From an uncultured Chloroflexia bacterium (lineage in GTDB: Bacteria > Chloroflexota > Limnocylindria > Limnocylindrales > CSP1-4), in contig CAVYIM010000003.1 in NCBI GenBank assembly GCA_963768655.1, positions 832,001-896,000 of the forward strand: a stretch of 64,000 nt of DNA, read 5' to 3'. This document shows, in pieces, positions 37,923 to 53,210 of the stretch. A program made the translations under genes and the position numbers. Each line of letters opens with the position of its first letter. The stretch's first letter is position 1. Below the pieces are notes generated by a model, which did not search any database, was not told where the DNA came from, and was given only the letters and a program-made list of their open reading frames with translations.

Positions 37923-38239
37923 GCTTCGTTCTCCAGTATTCGTGGTGCGCCGCTCCGTGTGGCGCTGGCTCACGATATATCGCGATACTCTCGGTTGTCA
38001 AGGGGTCCGACGAACGGCCATCGCTCGGCGCCAGGCAGCGGCCTGGAGTGCCGTGTTACCGCATCGCGCCGTGGGAGCGCCGCTGACTCGGCCGGCAGCG
38101 GAGCGCGGGATAGGCGGTGATAAGCCCGCGACAAGTCCTGATGGTCATCCTGTCTCCACGCCTGCGTGAGTCCAGTGAATCCCCTCCAGCGGGCGATGCC
38201 CGATTTCGATGCTGCTGCATTACTGCTATGCTGCATTTC

Positions 38240-38536
38240 GTGAAGACTCACTACGTTGCCGTCCAGGCGCGCGGGACCGTCGCGTTGCCGGCCGATCTCA
38301 GGCGCCGCCTGCACCTGGACCAGCCCGGGGCGCAGATACAGATCGTCGAGCAGGATGACGGCCGGATCGAGATCCGACCCGTCCTGCCGGTGCCCGCGGA
38401 CCAGCATTGGTTCTGGACCGAGCGCTGGCAGGCCATGGAGCGTGAGGTCGACGAGGACGTCGCCGCCGGCCGCGAGGTCACCGTAAACGGGCCCGACGAG
38501 CTATTCGAGTATCTCGACTCGAGCCTGAAGTCCTGA
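38240..38536 (+). CDS. AbrB/MazE/SpoVT-type antitoxin
   Basis: VQARGTVALPADLRRRLHL AbrB motif; DQHWFWTERWQAMEREVDED C-terminus; TATGCT 7 nt before GTG. Confidence 0.88.
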   Translation: MKTHYVAVQARGTVALPADLRRRLHLDQPGAQIQIVEQDDGRIEIRPVLPVPADQHWFWTERWQAMEREVDEDVAAGREVTVNGPDELFEYLDSSLKS

Positions 38537-38541
38537 CCGGC

Positions 38542-38853
38542 GTGAAGTTCCGAGTTGCGCCCGCGTTCGCCGGCGATTGGGCGCGCCTGTCAGAGTCCGA
38601 GCGCGCAACCTTTCGCTCGGTCGTCCGCGATGACTTCCACCCCGCCTGCGAGATGCATCTCGCGGACCCGGCGGCGCCATGGCCGGCGCAGCTTCGCGTG
38701 CGGCGGATCGAGGACGCGCCCGGGATATGGGAGATGACCTGGAGCTTCTCCGGCCCCGATGGGCGGGCAACGTTCGAGTGGATCCGGATCGACGGCCAGC
38801 CCGGCATCCGATGGCGTCGCGTCGGCGGCCACTCCATCTTCGGCGAGCCGTAG
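38542..38853 (+). CDS. RelE/ParE-superfamily-like toxin
   Basis: FAGDWARL..LRVRRIEDAPGIWEMTW..GRATF..WRRVGGHSIF; 5 nt after the antitoxin. Confidence 0.75.
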   Translation: MKFRVAPAFAGDWARLSESERATFRSVVRDDFHPACEMHLADPAAPWPAQLRVRRIEDAPGIWEMTWSFSGPDGRATFEWIRIDGQPGIRWRRVGGHSIFGEP

Positions 38854-39263: not shown

Positions 39264-40346
39264 CTAGTGTCCCGATTCGCCGGTCGCTAGCGGCTTCCGC
39301 ACTGCCTTGGCCAGAATCTGGTCGGCCGTCTTGACCCAGAGAAAGGGCGTTGCACCCTCGTTCCATTGCGCCGTGAAGCCGTTGATCATCGCGACGAGTT
39401 CCTTGACCGAGCGAAAGCTGCCACGGCGGATGGCCTGACGGCTCAGGATGCCGAACCAGGTCTCGATCTGGTTCATCCAGGACGCGCTGGTCGGGGTGAA
39501 ATGGAAGCTCACCCGCGGATGAGCCTCGAGCCACTTTCCGACGTCTGGCGTCTTGTGTGAGCTGACGTTGTCGAGCACGACTGCGAGGTCTTTCTCGGGA
39601 TAGGCTCGCTCAACCTGCGCCAGGAAGGCCAGGAAGTCGGCGCCGGTGTGGTGGGTGCGGGTCTGCGTGGTGACCTTGCCGGTGGCGACTTCCAGAGCGG
39701 CAAAGAGGTGGGTGGTGCCGTTCCGTTTGTAGTCGTGGGTGTGGCGCTCGACCTGGCCGGGCTTCATGGGCAGCATCGGGGCCGTTCGATCGAGAGCCTG
39801 GATCTGGGTCTTCTCGTCAACGGACAGCACGATAGCCCGCTCGGGCGGAGCGAGATAGAGCCCCACGACATCGCGGACCTTGGCCACAAGATCGGGATCG
39901 GTACTGAACTTGAACGTCTCGACCCGATGCGGCTTGAGACCAGCCTCGCGCCAGATGCGCTGGATGGTCGTGACACTGATGCCTGTCCGGGCAGCCATCG
40001 CTCGCGAACTCCAGTGGCTGGTCCCGAACGGCGGCGGCTCCAAGGTGAAGGCGATGACCCGGTCCCTAGCGGCCCGGTCGTAGGTTGGCACTCGGCCGGG
40101 CCGAGGCGCATCAGCCAGGCCGGCCATGCGGTCGGCCTCGAAACGAGTACGCCAGTCGCGCACCGTCAAGGGGGTGACCCCGATCTCGGCCGCAATCCGC
40201 TCGTTCGCCGTGCCGGCCGCTGCCGCAAGCACGATCCGGGCCCGCATCGCGAGTCGCTGCTCGGTCGTTCCCGCTCGTATCAGGGCCAGTAGGGATGCTC
40301 GTTCAGACTCGCTGATTACCAACGGCGGAGCTGGATGGTTCGGCAT
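39264..40346 (-). CDS. IS630 family DDE transposase
   Basis: HTH N-terminus; VDEKTQIQAL, YKRNGT, VLDNVSSHK, SWMNQIETWF. Confidence 0.97.
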   Translation of the reverse strand: MPNHPAPPLVISESERASLLALIRAGTTEQRLAMRARIVLAAAAGTANERIAAEIGVTPLTVRDWRTRFEADRMAGLADAPRPGRVPTYDRAARDRVIAFTLEPPPFGTSHWSSRAMAARTGISVTTIQRIWREAGLKPHRVETFKFSTDPDLVAKVRDVVGLYLAPPERAIVLSVDEKTQIQALDRTAPMLPMKPGQVERHTHDYKRNGTTHLFAALEVATGKVTTQTRTHHTGADFLAFLAQVERAYPEKDLAVVLDNVSSHKTPDVGKWLEAHPRVSFHFTPTSASWMNQIETWFGILSRQAIRRGSFRSVKELVAMINGFTAQWNEGATPFLWVKTADQILAKAVRKPLATGESGH

Positions 40347-40394
40347 AGCCAAATCGTAGCTGCAAACCAGTTACCCTGCAGCGGCTCGGGACAC
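39267..40394 (-). mobile_element. IS630-family insertion sequence (1128 bp)
   Basis: Terminal IRs GTGTCCCGA / TCGGGACAC flanked by duplicated TA (39265-66 and 40395-96). Confidence 0.93.
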
Positions 40395-41190: not shown

Positions 41191-41742
41191 GTGTCTACGC
41201 CGCTTCTCTCCCGGGCCGTCGAGAGCGTGTGGCAGATCCTTGCGCTCAGCCCCGAGCGACCGTTCTTCCAGCGCGAACTCGCCCGATTGACCGGCGAACC
41301 TTACAACGGCGTCGTCCAGGCGCTGCGCCGGCTGGTCCGCGACGGGCTCGTGACGACCGGCGTGGTCGGCGGCAAGCCGGCGTTCTATGCGAACCGCGAG
41401 AGCCCGTACTTCGACGAGTTCCAACGCATCGCCATCAAGAGCCTGGGCATCCCCAGCGCGCTGGACGCCGGCGGAGTCGTCGCGGTCAAGGTCGCCGTGT
41501 TCGGATCGTTTGCGAAGGGTGTCGCCGGACCGCAGTCGGACCTCGACGTCTTCGTCGTCGGCAGCGAGCCTTCGCCCGGCGCCGCGTCCACAGCCATGGC
41601 CGGGATAAGCCGCAAGTTAGGCCGCCCTGTCAATGTGGTCGTCTATAACCATGCCCGATATCAGCAGGAGCGCGAGGACGCCGCTACCTTCGTGTCGGCC
41701 ATCGTGGGCGCGCCGATCGTGAACCTCCGCGGAACGCTTTGA
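41191..41742 (+). CDS. wHTH + minimal nucleotidyltransferase (MNT) antitoxin
   Basis: RELARLTG HTH; FGSFAKG....SDLDVFVV Pol-beta NTase motif. Confidence 0.9.
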   Translation: MSTPLLSRAVESVWQILALSPERPFFQRELARLTGEPYNGVVQALRRLVRDGLVTTGVVGGKPAFYANRESPYFDEFQRIAIKSLGIPSALDAGGVVAVKVAVFGSFAKGVAGPQSDLDVFVVGSEPSPGAASTAMAGISRKLGRPVNVVVYNHARYQQEREDAATFVSAIVGAPIVNLRGTL

Positions 41743-42265
41743 TGCGATCGTTCGTGTCGATTGCGGCGCTGCTCGACCACGACGTTCGGCCGGCGTTCGA
41801 ACCTTCGATAGTCAACCGCAACGAAGCCGGCAGGAAAGCCGGCGAGATGAACAAGCATCTCGCCGAAGCCGAAAGCCTCGCCAGCTTCGGCTTTCGTGAG
41901 GACGCCCAGACCAGGTACGAAGCGGCGACAATCGCCGCTGCCGACGTGCTCCTGGCGCTGTCGGGTGCCTGTCTCGTCAACAGTCACCGCGGTCGCGCGC
42001 ACGAGGTGAAGAAGCACTTCCTGGTGGCCGCGCTGAATGCCGAGGGAAGCCGGCGCCCTCGCTCGAGCAGGTCCTCGCGATAACGCACATGCGCCATCTC
42101 GTCGAGTACGGCGCCTCGGTAATCGCGGAGCACCTGACGCCGCAGGCTGCTGACGAGGCACGGCCGGTCGCGAGCATCGCGCGCCGGTCAACGCTCGAGA
42201 TTCTCGACGAGGCCGGGATCGTTGTGCCGCAGCTCCCGCTTCAGGAGCCGCACGCGCCCAGATAG
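41742..42265 (+). CDS. HEPN-domain protein, frameshifted near 42047
   Basis: All-helical; YEAATIAAADVLLA..G..H; shifted frame reads LEQVLAITHMRHLVEYG..LTPQAADEA (R-X4-Y); TGATG overlap with MNT. Confidence 0.75.
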
Positions 42266-42829: not shown

Positions 42830-42951
42830 TCAGTCCCGCGGCCGCAACCGGGGGAGATTCGTACCGGTCGCGTAGGGTTTGACGGCGAGTAGACTGAGCG
42901 GGCGTCTCGAGAGCGCTCCGGGGAGGAGCGCCTGCACGGGGTAGGGATCGG

Positions 42952-43787
42952 ATGGGGGAGCTCGCGATCCAGAGCGAAGGCACGACGCCGCTCAGTGAGG
43001 CGGCGCCCGTCGCATCGCGGCGCGACCGGTTCAACGGCTGGTTCGTCACGCACGAGGTGGCGTGGGAGCTGGCCATGGCGGCGCTGGCCGTCGTGTACGT
43101 CGCGCTCGGGTTCGCGGTCGACGACCTCTCGGCGGGCGAGCGTCCGGAGATCGGGGCGGCCGAGTGGGCGCTGACCGGCATCTTCGTCCTCGAATTCGGC
43201 AGTCGAATCCTGGCGGCTCGGAGCCGGACGGCCTACCTGCGCGGCCCTGGATCGACGTCATCGCCCTGGCGCCACCGATCCGAGGCGCGCTGGTGCTTCG
43301 CCTCCTGCGGCTGCTTCGACTGGTTCGGTCGTTCGCCGGCCTCTATCGGGCGGGCCTCCACATCCAGGGCCTGGCTCGACACAAGGGCTTCGCCTGGCTG
43401 CTGACCGCCTGGCTCGGCGTCATGGCCCTCTGCTCGGCCTGGATGCACATCGCCGAGAAGGGCGTCAACAGCGCGATCCAGAACCCCTTCGACGCGCTCT
43501 GGTGTGGCGTCGTCACCCTGACCACCGTCGGTTACGGCGACGTCTACCCCGTCACCACCGAGGGCCGCCTCGTCGCCATGGCGCTGATGCTCCTCGGCAT
43601 CGGGCTCTTCGGCGCCATCACCGCCACGATCGCGAGCTACTTGATGAGCAGCGACAGCCACCACGACCCGGACCACTCTCCGGCGGGCGATCTGGAACGG
43701 CTAGCGGCGCTGCACGAGCAAGGGGCGTTGACACAGGACGAGTTCGCAGAGGCTAAGTTGTGGGCGCTCAAGGCGACGGCCCGCTAG
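42952..43787 (+). CDS. Potassium channel (ion transport family) with C-terminal SHOCT, frameshift near 43245
   Basis: S4-like LRLLRLLRLVR, DALWCGVVTLTTVGYGD filter, LERLAALHEQGALTQDEFAEAK SHOCT. Confidence 0.9.
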
Positions 43788-44017
43788 AAAGGAGCGAGGC
43801 AGGGAATGGCAATGAGTTGTCTTGGCGACCCCGCGGCGCCGCATTGCCGACTAGGCCAGCGAGACAAACGCCACTTGGCGTCCCGGAGCGTGGTGCCTGA
43901 AGGAAGTAATGCGTCGACTTCGGCGTCTCGCGGAGCTGTCCCGCAGACCCTGAGCGATATCACGGCCACGCACGAGCTAACACACGGCAGTGTCGGACTT
44001 AGTCAGGTGCGATCTCG

Positions 44018-44842
44018 CTAAGGCGTGTTGGCGGAAATGAGCACTTCATTGACGTAGCGACGGTGACTCGAGTCTGCCGCAACCGACGATCGCCGGGTAA
44101 TCATCTCCGTAGCAAATCCTTCGTAGAGCGCCAGGAGCGATGGGTGATTCGCATTTGAGACGAGGACGGAACACCCAGCCTCAGCAAGCCGTCTTGCGAC
44201 GCGAGCCAGTCTCTTCTGATCGTCGAACGAGTAGATGCGTTCGTTGTAACGAAGGAACCCATTCTGGTCATGCGCTACTGTATAGGGAGGGTCGAAGTAG
44301 ACGAAATCACCGGCTGACGCAGTTTCAACTGCTACTTCAAAATCACAGGCCATGAGTTGGGTGCTCTGAAGGGCGTCGCTCAGCGCCCACAGATGGCTGC
44401 GATCACTGAAAGAGTACACCCGGTGGCCGTATGGAGTGTTGAATTGTCCCTGTCGGTTGACTCTGTATATCCCATTGAACGCGAGTGTAGTCAAGTAGAT
44501 GAAACGGGCCGCCTTCTCAATGGCGTCGCCAGGGAAGGACTTTCGAACTACATAGTACCCGGCCTCGTCGGTCGGCAAGCGTTCGAGACATTCCTGAAGT
44601 GAAGCCCGGCGGTCTCGGAGTACTGCATAGAAATTCATCAAATCAACGTTGTGATCGGACAGGACAGCGGACCGCGGACAGAGATGAAAGAAGAGGGCCG
44701 CGCCACCGGCAAACGGCTCGAAATACCGGTGGAAGTTCGGCGGCACGTGTCGATCGATTGATGGGATGACGCTACGTTTGCCACCTGGCCACCTGAATGG
44801 AGGGGCGATTGCGAAACCAGATGGCGTGTCTAGTCGAATCAC
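44018..44842 (-). CDS. Dam-family (D12 class) N6-adenine DNA methyltransferase
   Basis: FRWPGGK, EPFAGGAALFF, FNGIYRVN..G.FNTPYG, YFDPPY; GTG start overlaps the upstream stop (GTGA). Confidence 0.95.
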   Translation of the reverse strand: MIRLDTPSGFAIAPPFRWPGGKRSVIPSIDRHVPPNFHRYFEPFAGGAALFFHLCPRSAVLSDHNVDLMNFYAVLRDRRASLQECLERLPTDEAGYYVVRKSFPGDAIEKAARFIYLTTLAFNGIYRVNRQGQFNTPYGHRVYSFSDRSHLWALSDALQSTQLMACDFEVAVETASAGDFVYFDPPYTVAHDQNGFLRYNERIYSFDDQKRLARVARRLAEAGCSVLVSNANHPSLLALYEGFATEMITRRSSVAADSSHRRYVNEVLISANTP

Positions 44843-46164
44843 AAACCCAGACCCCAGACGGCGACCCGCTCTAGCCCCGCCAGAGAGTGTAGATCGGTTG
44901 CTACATCGTGATTCAGCTGTCTGTATGTTCCCGGGTTCGCGGACGCTCGCCACTTCGACAGGGCGGCCAACGAGGCCTCTGAGTCCGTCCAGAGATCAAG
45001 GGCACTTGCTGGGCGCTCAGCACCTTCGTACAACCCGCGGTCTCTCAGCACAGGCAGCCACCAAAACTCGAACGAAGGTACCGGGATTGGTGACGACCTC
45101 CGGAGCTCCAAGGCGAGTCCCGTTGCTAGCCGGAGCAGGAGCAAAGCGCGCGCGATGACGCCGAAATGCACTGACATGGAGGCGCTGGAGGCGATGGTTA
45201 TAACCGGGAGGTCAGCAGCATCCTGATGACGAAGGAGGAAGTCACGCCATGACGGAATGGCGGGAGGCGGCCCGACGCGAGCAAGTATGGTGTCGACCGT
45301 GTTGATGAAATCTGCCTGGGTTCCTGTCTGGCTGGTTTGATCAAAGGAATCCTTGATAGCGATCCGAAGAAGATGCCGATCTAGCTGGTCGAATGGTGAG
45401 TACGACGACGGCCTCAGGGCTGTCCATAGGTCAAGCAGGAACGCTGCTGTCGCGTCAGCCGTCGGGGCGGGCGACTCCAAACCGTCAGGCCGGTAGCTTG
45501 CTGCATTGCGGAGGTCGCGATCCGCCGCGTAGCGACGAAGATCGGCACCCCACAGACTGAACCATCGACTTCCGATCCTTCGCCAGGGCCAGCCCCCAAA
45601 TCCGGCCGCCATCCAGTTCGAGAGCGTGATGCCACCTGGCGCGATAATTCGGCCTACGATGTCTCCTGACCGCATTCTTGCCCCCCAATGCTCGAGCGCA
45701 AGCCAGGCCATCTCGTGCGTCCCGCGGGTCTTGGGCGAGATCAGTTTGCTCGCTGCGGCATTGTGTGAGAACACGAAGTGATCTCCGTTCAAAACCGCAA
45801 TTCCCTGCGTGGCAAGAATACAAAGTGCTGCGTGCAATGAGGCGTAGTAAGCGAGATGGACCGAATGGTTTGAATCGCCTCGGCAGGCAGCCTGAATGGA
45901 AGTCCCAAGGTAGCCCCAGCCATCGCCGACGTGACGGAGAGTCGACGCGGCAGCGTACTGGAGAAGAGACCCAGAGTCCACCTGCGGGTTGGCGCCGCGT
46001 GCGTCGTCGTGGATTCTCGCTATGTGCCGGCCCGCATAGCGATTGGATCCTGGAAGCCATCGTCCGCGACGGAGACTCGGCTGGAGCAGGGAGAACGTCG
46101 ATTGGATCGTTTCATCAGAAGCACGCCGGAGCATGCGTTTCTCGTTGCTGTCGAGTGGCTTCAC
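44839..46164 (-). CDS. Hypothetical 441-aa protein with HEPN-like motifs
   Basis: HLAYYASLHAALCILATQG, GTHE, DRDLRNAASY (R-N-X3-Y); coupled between the DGQHR and MTase genes. Confidence 0.7.
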   Translation of the reverse strand: MKPLDSNEKRMLRRASDETIQSTFSLLQPSLRRGRWLPGSNRYAGRHIARIHDDARGANPQVDSGSLLQYAAASTLRHVGDGWGYLGTSIQAACRGDSNHSVHLAYYASLHAALCILATQGIAVLNGDHFVFSHNAAASKLISPKTRGTHEMAWLALEHWGARMRSGDIVGRIIAPGGITLSNWMAAGFGGWPWRRIGSRWFSLWGADLRRYAADRDLRNAASYRPDGLESPAPTADATAAFLLDLWTALRPSSYSPFDQLDRHLLRIAIKDSFDQTSQTGTQADFINTVDTILARVGPPPAIPSWRDFLLRHQDAADLPVITIASSASMSVHFGVIARALLLLRLATGLALELRRSSPIPVPSFEFWWLPVLRDRGLYEGAERPASALDLWTDSEASLAALSKWRASANPGTYRQLNHDVATDLHSLAGLERVAVWGLGL

Positions 46165-46179
46165 GCGTTCCTGCCCGTC

Positions 46180-47679
46180 CTATCGGAGGCCCAGCGCTGA
46201 AACCACCTGTTCCGAAAGCAGCGCTATTTCCTGATCCGGCGAGCTAGTCATGTGCCTCATCACAATTCGACGAAGCAGAGGGTACCCACCATTTCCTCGG
46301 TACGCCATCCTGAGCTGCTGGTCTTCTTCCGATAGGCCAGGCGCGGCCGAGGACCGCCAGTCGAACGCCGCAAGGTGTGCGGAGACGCGCTCCAGGAACC
46401 CCGCGAAAGGCTGTAGCCTCGCCTCTCGAATTGCGTCCGTTACGTCCTTGGTATCAACTAGATCAGAGGCGCGGTCGAGCTCCCAGCCAAACAGATTGAG
46501 ACGATGGGCGGCTAGGTAGGTGAGATCGTTGTAGACCTGAAGGATCACGCGAACGCCTTGGTCGGAACTGGTGAGGCTGTTGTTCGTGAAGATGGCCCCG
46601 GTTCCACGACCATCGAGCTGCCGAACCCATTCGAGGTTCCGCGACGCTACCGAGCGCGCAAACATCTCCCAGGCTAGGATCAGAAAAGCTGCTTGCTGAG
46701 CGCGAGACCAAGGGAGGGCAAGGCGGTCTGATCCTACCGGCGCTCCGTACAGTCCGCCTACAAGCTTCCCTCTTCCTTCCCAGTTGCGAATGAAGGATGA
46801 AAGCAAGGAACGGATCCACGAAGCCTGTGTCACGCCAGGTTTGGATGGCTCACCAAGCATATTGATTCGGTTCTTCCAGATGCTGGCCGGGTGCGTCCAC
46901 AGGATCTCGGTCATCTCCTGTGCTCGAGTTTCGCGATATATGCCAGCCCCTTCGAACCGATCAAGCCAATCCTCCGTCCGGAGGAGCGGGTAGAGGTCGA
47001 AGGCAAGACTCCGGTTGATACGCTTCGGCTTTATGTTGATCGTGTAGAAGAGATACGCCTGCCAACTGATATCGAGCCCTCGGAAAGCGACGACCGGGAG
47101 TTGATAGGTTTCGGGGAGCCCTCGCTCGTCGAATGCCCACAGGCGGTGCTGCCCATCTATGATTTCCAGTGGTGGTACCTCGGCGGGTCTCCAACGGGGG
47201 TCCGCGGATCCGGGCGGGAGTTCGACCTCGGCTGTCCCCCTGTCGTCGTCCGTAACCTTGATGACCTCGGACGGCGCGACTCGCCGACCGCCGCGTTTGT
47301 CGACCGACAGGAGCATGTTGACAACCACCGCGGTCGGGAGCCAACCGGGTTTCTTCAGGTCGTGGAACTCATCGGAGGCTCGGCGGCGCGGTGGAAGGTT
47401 GGACCATGGGAAGCCAAGCTTCACGTAGTCGGCTATCTCACTAGACCGCTCTACATCGTGACGTCGCTGGATCCCAAGAGAGTCGACGCGGGCTCCGTCC
47501 GTGACTTCCCGGCGGTAGACGCCTGTTAACCTGCGTATCAGGCCAACCTCGAGTGACAGGAGATAGAACTCAGGGGCCGGCTTCCTCCGGTGATCACGCT
47601 CGGCAAAGTCGACGTCATTCCATCCCCGCAGCCATTGACGCACTCGCAGCGCGGGAACCTTGACTGGCTCGGGCGGCAT
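46180..47679 (-). CDS. DGQHR-domain (DndB/ParB-like) protein
   Basis: GIQR, WLPTAVVVN, IIDGQHRLWAF, AYLFYTINIKPKRIN; AGGAG RBS 9 nt before ATG 47679. Confidence 0.92.
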   Translation of the reverse strand: MPPEPVKVPALRVRQWLRGWNDVDFAERDHRRKPAPEFYLLSLEVGLIRRLTGVYRREVTDGARVDSLGIQRRHDVERSSEIADYVKLGFPWSNLPPRRRASDEFHDLKKPGWLPTAVVVNMLLSVDKRGGRRVAPSEVIKVTDDDRGTAEVELPPGSADPRWRPAEVPPLEIIDGQHRLWAFDERGLPETYQLPVVAFRGLDISWQAYLFYTINIKPKRINRSLAFDLYPLLRTEDWLDRFEGAGIYRETRAQEMTEILWTHPASIWKNRINMLGEPSKPGVTQASWIRSLLSSFIRNWEGRGKLVGGLYGAPVGSDRLALPWSRAQQAAFLILAWEMFARSVASRNLEWVRQLDGRGTGAIFTNNSLTSSDQGVRVILQVYNDLTYLAAHRLNLFGWELDRASDLVDTKDVTDAIREARLQPFAGFLERVSAHLAAFDWRSSAAPGLSEEDQQLRMAYRGNGGYPLLRRIVMRHMTSSPDQEIALLSEQVVSALGLR

Positions 47680-47797
47680 GTCCCCCAACTCCTGACGTGC
47701 TGGTACGAGCGGCTCGCTCCTCGGAGATCATACGTCGGCCAAGACACTCGGAACCAGCGTAGGCCTCACGTCATACGAACTCGGAGCCAGTGTTCTG

Positions 47798-52186
<4,389 letters not shown>

Positions 52187-52250
52187 CTCGTGCACCTCTA
52201 CCTGGTTCTCTGTCTCGCGGTCGGGACGCTGGTTCATCGGTGGGCCTGGG

Positions 52251-52315
52251 GTTGTTGCGTGGCGTTGTTGCGTGGCGTGGTTGCGTGGCGTTGTTGCGTG
52301 GCGTTGTTGCGCGGC
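52251..52315 (+). repeat. 13-bp tandem repeat GTTGTTGCGTGGC x5
   Basis: Five consecutive units, two with single substitutions, in the nrdJ upstream region. Confidence 0.9.
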
Positions 52316-52649
52316 GGCGGCGGGGTGGCGCTGTGGCGGCCGGGCGGCGGCAGGGTGGCGAGGCCAGGCGGGCCCTCTGGCCCGACTGGGCGGTGCCGTG
52401 GCTGCGTGGCTATCCCGTGGCTGCGCGACCGGTTCGCGGACCTTGCGCGGGCGGCGAGCGCTGGGGGTTCTCCTACCCGGTGCGAGCCCGTGCGAAGGTC
52501 TGGATCGGTTCGTCCATCGTCGCCCGCGATAGCCTGCGAGGGCTCCTGGCCGGATCCGATCGTGGTCCTTCCTTCGCCAATTCGACCGTCCTTCCTTCGG
52601 CCTGCTTGCGGCGGCCAGTGGGCCTTCGCGGAGCCCATCGACCGCCGGG

Positions 52650-52679
52650 AATGTACGCCTGCGCCGCACCCCCAGTCAA
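52650..52679 (-). promoter_or_regulatory. Putative nrdJ promoter
   Basis: TTGACT-18 nt-TACATT on the - strand next to the NrdR boxes. Confidence 0.55.
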
Positions 52680-52737: not shown

Positions 52738-52944
52738 CGGGCCGTGATTCTGTGGAGATCCGCCCGGAGTTGGTGCATGCCCTGTGGACCGGCTGTGGAC
52801 GAGGAGTTCCGCGGCGTTCCGGCGGGCGCTCTGGCCGTCCATCGGAACGGGCCGTGGGGGCCGGACGGCCGGCAATCGACCCGCCGCCCCTTTCCTAACA
52901 GAACGTACGTGCTATTCTACTGCGAATGTCCAGCGGGCCGCGAG

Positions 52945-53141
52945 GGCGTGGCGGCACGGGCGGGGTGTGGCCGCGCGGGGTGGCGGGGCGCGGGGCAGAG
53001 GGCGGGGGCGTGGCCGCGGCGGTGTGGCCGCGCGGGGAGTGGCCGCGCGGGGGGTGTGGCCGCGCGGGGGGTGTGGCCGCGCGGGGGGGTCTGGCCGCGC
53101 GGGGGGGTGTGGCCGCGCGGGGGGCGTGGCCGCGCGCGGGG
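52945..53141 (+). repeat. G-rich imperfect tandem repeat, core TGGCCGCGCGGGG
   Basis: About 8-9 copies of 16-19 bp with variable G runs. Confidence 0.85.
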
Positions 53142-53210
53142 CATGAGGGCCGGGCGTAGCGGCGCGGGGCCGAGCCGCGGGGCGCTGCGGCGCCTTGTGG
53201 CCCCGCTTTT

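Follow-up and report, generated by a model that had tools for sequence, protein, structure and literature searches.

What might three genes do that lie back to back in a low-GC insert and encode a DGQHR-motif protein, an all-helical partner and a Dam-family DNA methylase? The question is raised by a stretch of 64,000 nucleotides from an uncultured Chloroflexia bacterium (assembly GCA_963768655.1, contig CAVYIM010000003.1; hereafter the window), in which the three genes, here called g1, g2 and g3, form a cassette that an initial annotation of the bare sequence had put forward as an undescribed defence operon. Comparison across genomes shows that g1 and g2 are an obligate pair, closely linked to a DNA-modifying enzyme that looks active and varies in type, and that the cassette is mobile and located in defence hotspots. 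As for the function, we hold it about an even call that the cassette is a restriction-modification (R-M)-like, modification-coupled anti-invader (anti-phage) system, with g1-g2 as sensor and effector and the methylase providing the self-mark.

A conserved mobile pair with an exchangeable modification gene

One genome per species was scanned with a single conserved g2 peptide pattern, and 154 of the 185,579 species-level genomes yielded confirmed g2 relatives. The best 80 of these loci are found in Planctomycetota, Elusimicrobia, Chloroflexota, Cyanobacteria, Actinomycetota, Patescibacteria, many Proteobacteria and the archaeon Methanoregula. Searched against 1.84 billion representatives, a g2 profile recovered 1,234 clusters (50% identity), of which 927 reach E<=1e-30. 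The family is widespread in bacteria and present in at least one archaeal genus, and no Pfam, NCBIfam or PADLOC model covers it.

Neighbourhoods were counted in the best 80 of the 154 loci. A g1 homologue with 39-57% identity stands directly upstream of g2 in 78 of them, the other two starting at a contig edge, and the spacing between both genes is at most 30 nucleotides in 72 of 76 loci. Across phyla, the mean column identity is 47% for g1 and 37% for g2. On the downstream side, two loci (L031 and L074; these labels are ours) have no room for a further gene and were left out, leaving 78. In 62 of these a D12 methylase is the open reading frame (ORF) that follows g2, and the total rises to 65 with one methylase detected by tblastn (L014), one located upstream (L045) and one fused (L023). 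About 17 of the D12 partners are short and Dam-like, as in the window, and the rest belong to a longer, divergent form of ~380 amino acids; the DPPY motif is kept in nearly all, the long form included.

The remaining partners are of other types. Five loci carry dnd genes instead of a D12 enzyme: dndC/D/E adjoin g1-g2 in L015, L033 and L040; L078 presents a DndD/PbeC-like ATPase, a DndA-like desulfurase, an ORF of the DndE cluster and a helicase-PLD protein; and L054 presents a DndA-like desulfurase only, followed by the end of the contig. Four more carry different methylases (MT-A70 in L010, N6_N4 in L068, type-I-like in L076 and MTase_II in L013). Taken globally, 74 of the 78 loci have a modification gene next to the pair, mostly overlapping g2 or within 30 nucleotides of it. 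From this conserved neighbourhood it follows that the trio is real and that g1-g2 is its invariant part: the pair is constant, and the modification gene is a replaceable module. The prediction that homologues of the genes would co-occur elsewhere was thus borne out. The trio as a unit holds up as a conserved mobile cassette, but its methylase is not fixed, being swapped for other methylases or for dnd genes.

The exchange of partners is also visible in a maximum-likelihood tree of concatenated g1 and g2, built from the 60 loci in which both genes are intact (20 truncated or split loci were excluded). Partner type needs at least 13 changes on this tree, where the least possible number is 6 and shuffled labels average 23.9. 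The short Dam-like partner arose at least three times, the dnd-linked loci appear in two places, one of them sister to loci with the short Dam-like form, and the window copy forms a long branch by itself, surrounded by loci that carry the long D12 form.

Two loci present unusual arrangements. In L023 (6986-9466, plus strand), an 826-residue ORF holds g2, with RNEASY at residue 220, in frame with a long D12 methylase, which has its DPPY at 696 and is 59% identical to the methylase of L006. This ORF may be a genuine fusion or may stem from a faulty assembly, the latter being possible because the same assembly carries a split g1. In L020 (6950-9247, plus strand), the g1-g2-methylase trio is directly followed by a gene for a 765-residue protein with a DndB/DpdB-like region (227-404) and a Swt1-like HEPN region (630-746), that is, a fused ParB-HEPN form beside the split one. 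A search of longer proteins for fused forms of g2 found none, which is weak evidence. Single-linkage clustering had grouped the ~380-residue third gene as a g2 paralogue, an assignment that we rejected, as Pfam identifies it as a divergent D12 methylase.

The cassette has been acquired horizontally, at a site whose content varies and, in relatives, includes defence genes. None of 100 genomes of relatives (50 of the same genus) contains g2. When a 6-kb DNA query was compared with 30 relatives, only window positions 42900-43757 and 47797-48900 matched, corresponding to the K+ channel gene and the 3' end of nrdJ, with no DNA match between 43760 and 47800. In six relatives of the genus (L088-L093), the gap between these two genes measures 2.6-6.5 kb and contains other cargo: an N6_N4 methylase in genome G012, an Eco57I-like methylase with a SIR2-STAND NTPase in G010, GmrSD_N and RiboL-PSP HEPN together with HTH and HSDR_N_2 in G015, an Eco57I-like enzyme in G016, and genes with no Pfam match in G001 and G008. 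Within the genus, this site is a hotspot for defence genes.

A similar company is found elsewhere. Of the 127 ORFs that directly adjoin the cassette in other genomes, 25 match PADLOC models (E<=1e-15; a raw count without background control), covering type I, IIG and IV R-M, HmaB, SoFic, PDC candidates and Pbe/Dnd, with a few generic matches. Phage records contain no g2 relatives and plasmid records contain one. On plasmid pRt932 of Rhizobium tumorigenes (L106, 442066-455139), the trio stands beside TniB, Mu-transposase and recombinase genes, which suggests that a Tn7-like or Mu-like element carries it; its genes are annotated there as 'DGQHR domain-containing protein / hypothetical protein / DNA adenine methylase', and 'hypothetical protein' is also what RefSeq gives for g2.

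Predicted folds and conserved sites of the three proteins

Judged by its sequence, g3 is a Dam-family, D12-class adenine methylase. It matches PF02086 at E 5e-45 and TIGR00571 (dam) with 224.8 bits, above the cut-off of 114.85. It is not the E. coli Dam equivalog, because its score against NF008152 is 121.7 bits, under the cut-off of 441. In PADLOC it is recognised by generic MTase_II/oMTase models only (MTase_II, E 4.7e-71). Motif I (FAGG) and motif IV (DPPY) are intact.

The protein g1 is predicted to be a ParB/Srx-fold protein of the DGQHR kind. Its AF2 model (pLDDT 86.2) shows an N-terminal ParB-like domain, ~35-243, and a C-terminal helical domain, ~246-499. The motifs Q71-R72, L114-P115, D175-G-Q-H-R179 and F211..I214-N215 are invariant or nearly so in 60 homologues; Q71-R72, D175-R179, F211 and N215 are invariant in all 60, completing the QR, DGQHR and FxxxN set as defined in part of PMC4619093. 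The family models recognise g1 under their cut-offs: 50.9 bits for TIGR03187 DGQHR (cut-off 58.85), 18.7 bits for PF14072 DndB (29.1) and 54.2 bits for TIGR04172 (450; E 1.2e-14). In PADLOC-DB the only match is DpdB at E 0.044.

Structure comparison of g1 with VIA returned PadC ParB-like (Z 7.7), Pnob8 ParB-N (6.1), KorB (5.5), sulfiredoxin (5.4) and SspE (3.3). The top rows are all ParB/Srx proteins, yet every Z is below 8. Foldseek against the PDB gave ParB/Noc with probabilities of 0.72-0.84 and SspE as its top row (E 0.079), none at E<=0.001, and a sequence search of the PDB gave one chance PPR match only. The C-terminal helical domain has no clear structural match in VIA, neither to HEPN nor to HNH-type folds, although a weak HNH match could escape.

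The all-helical g2 has an AF2 model with pLDDT 89.4 and pTM 0.91. It has no match at E<=1 in Pfam, NCBIfam or PADLOC, and HEPN models of Pfam matched 0 of 60 family members at E<=10. In a wide VIA search, the first three ranks were 2hsb, a HEPN protein (Z 9.9, 126 of 126 residues, root-mean-square deviation 2.7 A), 4nqf (8.8) and 1ufb (8.5). HEPN-titled rows make up 6 of the 22 at the top, and the rows include sacsin HEPN, ST0689, a HEPN toxin, four Csm6 entries, AbiA and AbiV. Further rows are 1jog, 1ylm, 3jyy, 2pbe and 3c8g, entries that part of PMC3710099 lists in the HEPN superfamily. Foldseek against the PDB found nothing at E<=0.001, a profile search of PDB sequences gave chance prion matches only, and in the ESM Atlas a homologue used as query (P0012) led to unnamed clusters, the nearest named protein being YaaC at 0.77, which is chance level. 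Because HEPN domains top the structural search, the predicted g2 structure can be called HEPN-like at the level of the fold, with the four-helix up-down bundle typical of that superfamily.

The conservation pattern of g2 is of a different kind. H78, H103, H150, D208, D215, R219, N220, S223, Y224 and R339 are identical in 60 of 60 homologues, as is Y106-Y107-A108, with R219-N220-x-x-S223-Y224 as an invariant motif; the helix that closes the HEPN-aligned range bears R339 and R345 and no histidine. By their conservation, these residues look like a distinct type of active or ligand-binding site. The motifs first reported for the three proteins are all present, including YYA and RNxxxY of g2, but the histidine of its 'YYA..H' (H111) is not conserved. 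A predicted complex of g1 and g2 obtained a score of 0.03 (mark 0.32), which speaks neither for nor against binding.

What the cassette may do

If the cassette is an R-M-like anti-invader system, g3 would mark host DNA with N6-methyladenine (m6A). As a putative ParB/Srx-fold nucleoside triphosphatase (NTPase) of the DGQHR kind, g1 would bind DNA and, much as SspE and DndI do, hydrolyse nucleotides to tell how that DNA is modified. In turn, g2, whose HEPN fold would hold a non-canonical invariant polar site (R219-N220..S223-Y224, H78, H103, H150, R339), would either be the effector, attacking the nucleic acid of invaders that lack the mark (or that of the infected cell), or serve as a subunit that switches a nicking activity of g1. 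The pair would form the constant core, and the self-marking module would be exchangeable.

The analogy comes from DUF262 ParB-like NTPases fused to a DUF1524/HNH nickase, the phosphorothioate-sensing partners of SspABCD (SspE) and DndBCDE (DndI). According to part of PMC11662687, these proteins sense DNA modification and gate the fused HNH nickase. The cassette shares with them a predicted ParB/Srx-fold domain of NTPase type, a DGQ(H/Q)R motif, the coupling to a DNA-modification module and a mobile defence context. It differs in that neither g1 nor g2 contains HNH/DUF1524, that the motif is DGQHR and not DGQQR, that the second function lies on a separate 441-residue HEPN-fold protein, and that a D12 methylase usually supplies the mark, which is then m6A and not phosphorothioate.

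The combination of genes has precedents. A passage in PMC3632139 (Makarova et al. 2013) describes COG1479/DUF262/DGQHR proteins as often fused to HNH, PD-(D/E)xK or HEPN and linked to modification systems, and parts of the same paper and of PMC3710099 (Anantharaman et al. 2013) report ParB-like domains linked or fused to HEPN and modification systems. The MAE_28990 family (PF18737) shows the same gene theme, with a ParB-like gene directly before a HEPN-fold gene and sometimes a DNA methylase. PF18737 is present in 65 of 301 genomes of the cyanobacterial phylum, of which we compared the 12 best loci (L094-L105). In all 12, a HEPN ORF of 210-236 residues with RNxxAH is directly preceded by an ORF of 362-377 residues, overlapping by 4-8 nucleotides as a result of longest-ORF calling; the upstream ORF is GmrSD_N/DUF262 in 6 of 6 scanned, and a C-5 cytosine methylase adjoins the pair in L100 and L101. 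The MAE_28990 protein is half the size of g2, bears the canonical RNxxAH and has a DUF262 partner, not a DGQHR one.

We considered and ruled out that g2 belongs to this family, given its different motif and size, PF18737 matches in 0 of 60 g2 homologues and 0 of five cassette-bearing genomes, and a profile-profile probability (hhalign) of 0.15%. The ParB/HEPN/methylase theme has thus been published before, though with two other protein families, and the order g1-g2-methylase fits that operon theme while being built from other proteins. No named system of PADLOC-DB v2.0.0 matches g1 or g2, and the literature search found no name for the cassette, although the supplementary tables of Aravind-lab papers, which it did not cover, may list the neighbourhood. 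The initial annotation was thus right in not recognising a named system, but its idea is in part an older one, the theme having been noted in 2013. The cassette is a widespread unnamed variant of a known ParB-like/HEPN/modification theme, and not categorically new.

Several observations weigh against an R-M-like system. As first noted, the three proteins contain no PD-(D/E)XK or HNH nuclease domain, nor GIY-YIG or PLD, by Pfam, NCBIfam and PADLOC, and no dnd or dpd gene is among them; structure searches of g1 and g2 gave HEPN-like and ParB-like folds only. The HEPN match of g2 (Z 9.9) lies in the range under ~13 in which helical bundles can match by arrangement alone. The catalytic Rx4-6H of HEPN RNases occurs at any one alignment position in at most 14 of 60 g2 homologues, and g2 has no profile link to any HEPN family. 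Because of these two absences, it is the fold that carries the claim of a 'HEPN RNase causing abortive infection': HEPN-like survives as a description of the structure, but not of the motif or the sequence family. Four loci (L005, L008, L075 and L080) have no adjacent modification gene. The methylase comes last in the operon, which is unusual for a system that would kill unmarked hosts. Finally, closely related g1-g2 cores pair with m6A or with phosphorothioate, which is awkward for a direct reader of the mark.

This last point leads to a more specific possibility, which we regard as tentative. A pair indifferent to the chemistry of the mark (m6A from three methylase families, or phosphorothioate) would monitor the act or machinery of modification, or a generic DNA state. 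The pair g1-g2 may then provide a mark-agnostic, modification-coupled immunity, made of a ParB-like nucleotide switch and a new HEPN-derived enzyme family in which Rx4-6H is replaced by an invariant Arg-Asn/Ser-Tyr/His site. If the cassette is defensive, it would represent a widespread R-M-like system without a classical nuclease and a new active-site variant of the HEPN fold. It would also offer a natural experiment in which self-marks (m6A or phosphorothioate) are swapped on one effector core, and bear on how the ParB-like sensors SspE, DndI and DndB read the state of DNA.

Because the marks are swapped, an abortive-infection guard and a DndB-like regulator become serious rivals. In the guard mechanism, proposed in the initial annotation, g2 would be a dormant toxin, whether an RNase or not, kept in check by g1, the methylase or both and released, as in PrrC, once a phage interferes with DNA modification or with g1; the roles inferred there were those of sensor for g1, self-mark or guarded component for the methylase and RNase for g2. 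The HEPN-like fold of g2 and the lack of a DNA nuclease domain in the trio are consistent with this, as is the proposal, in part of PMC3710099, that HEPN proteins within R-M operons act like PrrC; moreover, that any modification module can be the partner is easier to explain with a guard of 'modification activity' than with a reader of a single mark. However, g2 has neither the Rx4-6H motif nor a profile match to HEPN RNases, the trio has no restriction enzyme whose failure would need a back-up, and this analysis gave no sign of toxicity. We consider such a guard unlikely, though it is the best placed of the rivals.

Unlikely as well, and ranked just behind, is that the pair is a control module and not a defence system, with g1 (and g2) controlling how strongly the methylase or dnd genes beside them are expressed, how much of the product there is or where it acts, in the way that DndB represses dndBCDE and DpdB assists DpdA. 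DndB is ParB-like plus HEPN according to part of PMC3632139, and passages in PMC4507180 and PMC10853773 report it as an ATP-modulated repressor of phosphorothioate modification. Its activity as a possible NTPase or nuclease is discussed in sections of PMC10853773 and PMC12839542, and in the latter DpdB is an ATPase needed for base insertion. The same sections of these two Dnd/BREX reappraisals do not describe the cassette. With DndB, g1 has in common the QR, DGQHR and FxxxN motifs, a predicted ParB/Srx fold and, in L015, L033 and L040, the dndB position upstream of dndC-D-E; that the pair goes with whatever modification gene is present also fits a regulator. On the other hand, g1 scores below the DndB and DGQHR cut-offs, is longer (499 residues), has a C-terminal domain without a HEPN match and is always accompanied by g2, with no dnd genes in the window. 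Two large conserved proteins with an invariant enzyme-like site would be much for regulating a 274-residue methylase, and an orphan methylase with its regulators is not expected to move into defence hotspots.

The cassette also resembles classical type II R-M systems with a Dam/DpnM-class methylase, in that it has one small D12 methylase, presumably transcribed together with genes that are not methylases, on a mobile low-GC insert. It departs from them in having no recognisable restriction endonuclease fold, two partner proteins and not one, and a methylase interchangeable with dnd genes. Like such systems, it might be a selfish addiction cassette, whose pair eliminates any cell that has shed the methylase (post-segregational killing), with defence as a by-product. 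Its mobility, the tight linkage of its genes and the tendency of decayed copies (L017, L064, L013) to lose several genes together agree with this, but four loci retain g1-g2 without an adjacent methylase. We judge addiction improbable; it is hard to tell from an R-M-like defence system, because classical R-M systems behave alike.

Least probable is a type IV-like pair that restricts foreign modified DNA beside a functionally unrelated methylase: GmrSD/BrxU-type enzymes are among the closest ParB-like defence enzymes (in part of PMC4619093) and a few loci lack a methylase, but the close adjacency in 74 of 78 loci is unexpected for an unrelated neighbour, and there is no HNH/DUF1524 domain.

Layout of the locus and its neighbours in the window

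The ORF list and the sequence confirm three co-oriented genes on the minus strand, exactly at the coordinates first given (Table 1). The first, g1, starts with ATG and has AGGAG 8 nucleotides upstream. The GTG start of g2 lies 15 nucleotides past the TAG of g1; an alternative ATG at 46134 would yield the 431-residue form, which is the version in one database. The GTG of g3 overlaps the TGA of g2 as GTGA.

Table 1. Features of the cassette and its immediate flanks (window positions)
Feature	Position	Strand	Basis
g1, DGQHR-motif ParB/Srx-fold protein (predicted), 499 residues	46180..47679	-	ORF and sequence
g2, all-helical partner, 441 residues, predicted HEPN-like helical core with large insertions	44839..46164	-	ORF and AF2 model
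g3, Dam-family (D12 class) N6-adenine DNA methyltransferase by sequence, 274 residues	44018..44842	-	PF02086, TIGR00571
Low-GC insert between the K+ channel gene and nrdJ	43760..47800		GC profile, flank-only matches in 30 relatives
nrdJ, class II (B12) ribonucleotide reductase with LAGLIDADG intein (ORF as listed; extends far upstream of the probable start, the true start being probably further downstream)	47798..52669	-	Pfam
K+ channel-like gene (Ion_trans_2 with SHOCT tail)	43062..43787	+	Pfam; conserved in relatives

The cassette is AT-rich relative to its flanks, as first described, with a GC fraction of 0.54-0.62 over 44000-47500 against 0.64-0.72 on both sides, and it follows directly upon nrdJ, whose stop lies 118 nucleotides upstream of the g1 start. 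The Pfam matches of nrdJ are Ribonuc_red_lgC, Ribonuc_red_2_N, Intein_splicing and LAGLIDADG_3. A promoter scan of the cassette found no promoter-like site, the sites being fewer than in shuffles, and a terminator scan found one terminator-like site, inside g1 on the opposite strand, again fewer than in shuffles. Comparison of the insert ends for direct or inverted repeats gave short, chance-level pairs and nothing more.

Mobile and toxin-antitoxin genes had been proposed nearby. The insertion sequence is there, in the form of an IS630-like DDE_3 transposase (39264-40352, Pfam). Of the toxin-antitoxin modules, a nucleotidyltransferase of MNT type (NTP_transf_2, 41191-41742) was found; it overlaps the start of a 114-residue ORF, with which it spans 41191-42083 on the plus strand and possibly forms an MNT-HEPN toxin-antitoxin pair, but neither this ORF nor the gene pair at 38117-38853 has a Pfam match. 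Transposase and nucleotidyltransferase stand 2-5 kb from the cassette. On the other side, upstream of nrdJ, a region with a GC fraction of 0.78 (~52900-53200) presents overlapping ORF translations with a short peptide unit in tandem (e.g. GGVWPRG / PRGHTP), which points to a GC-rich tandem repeat.

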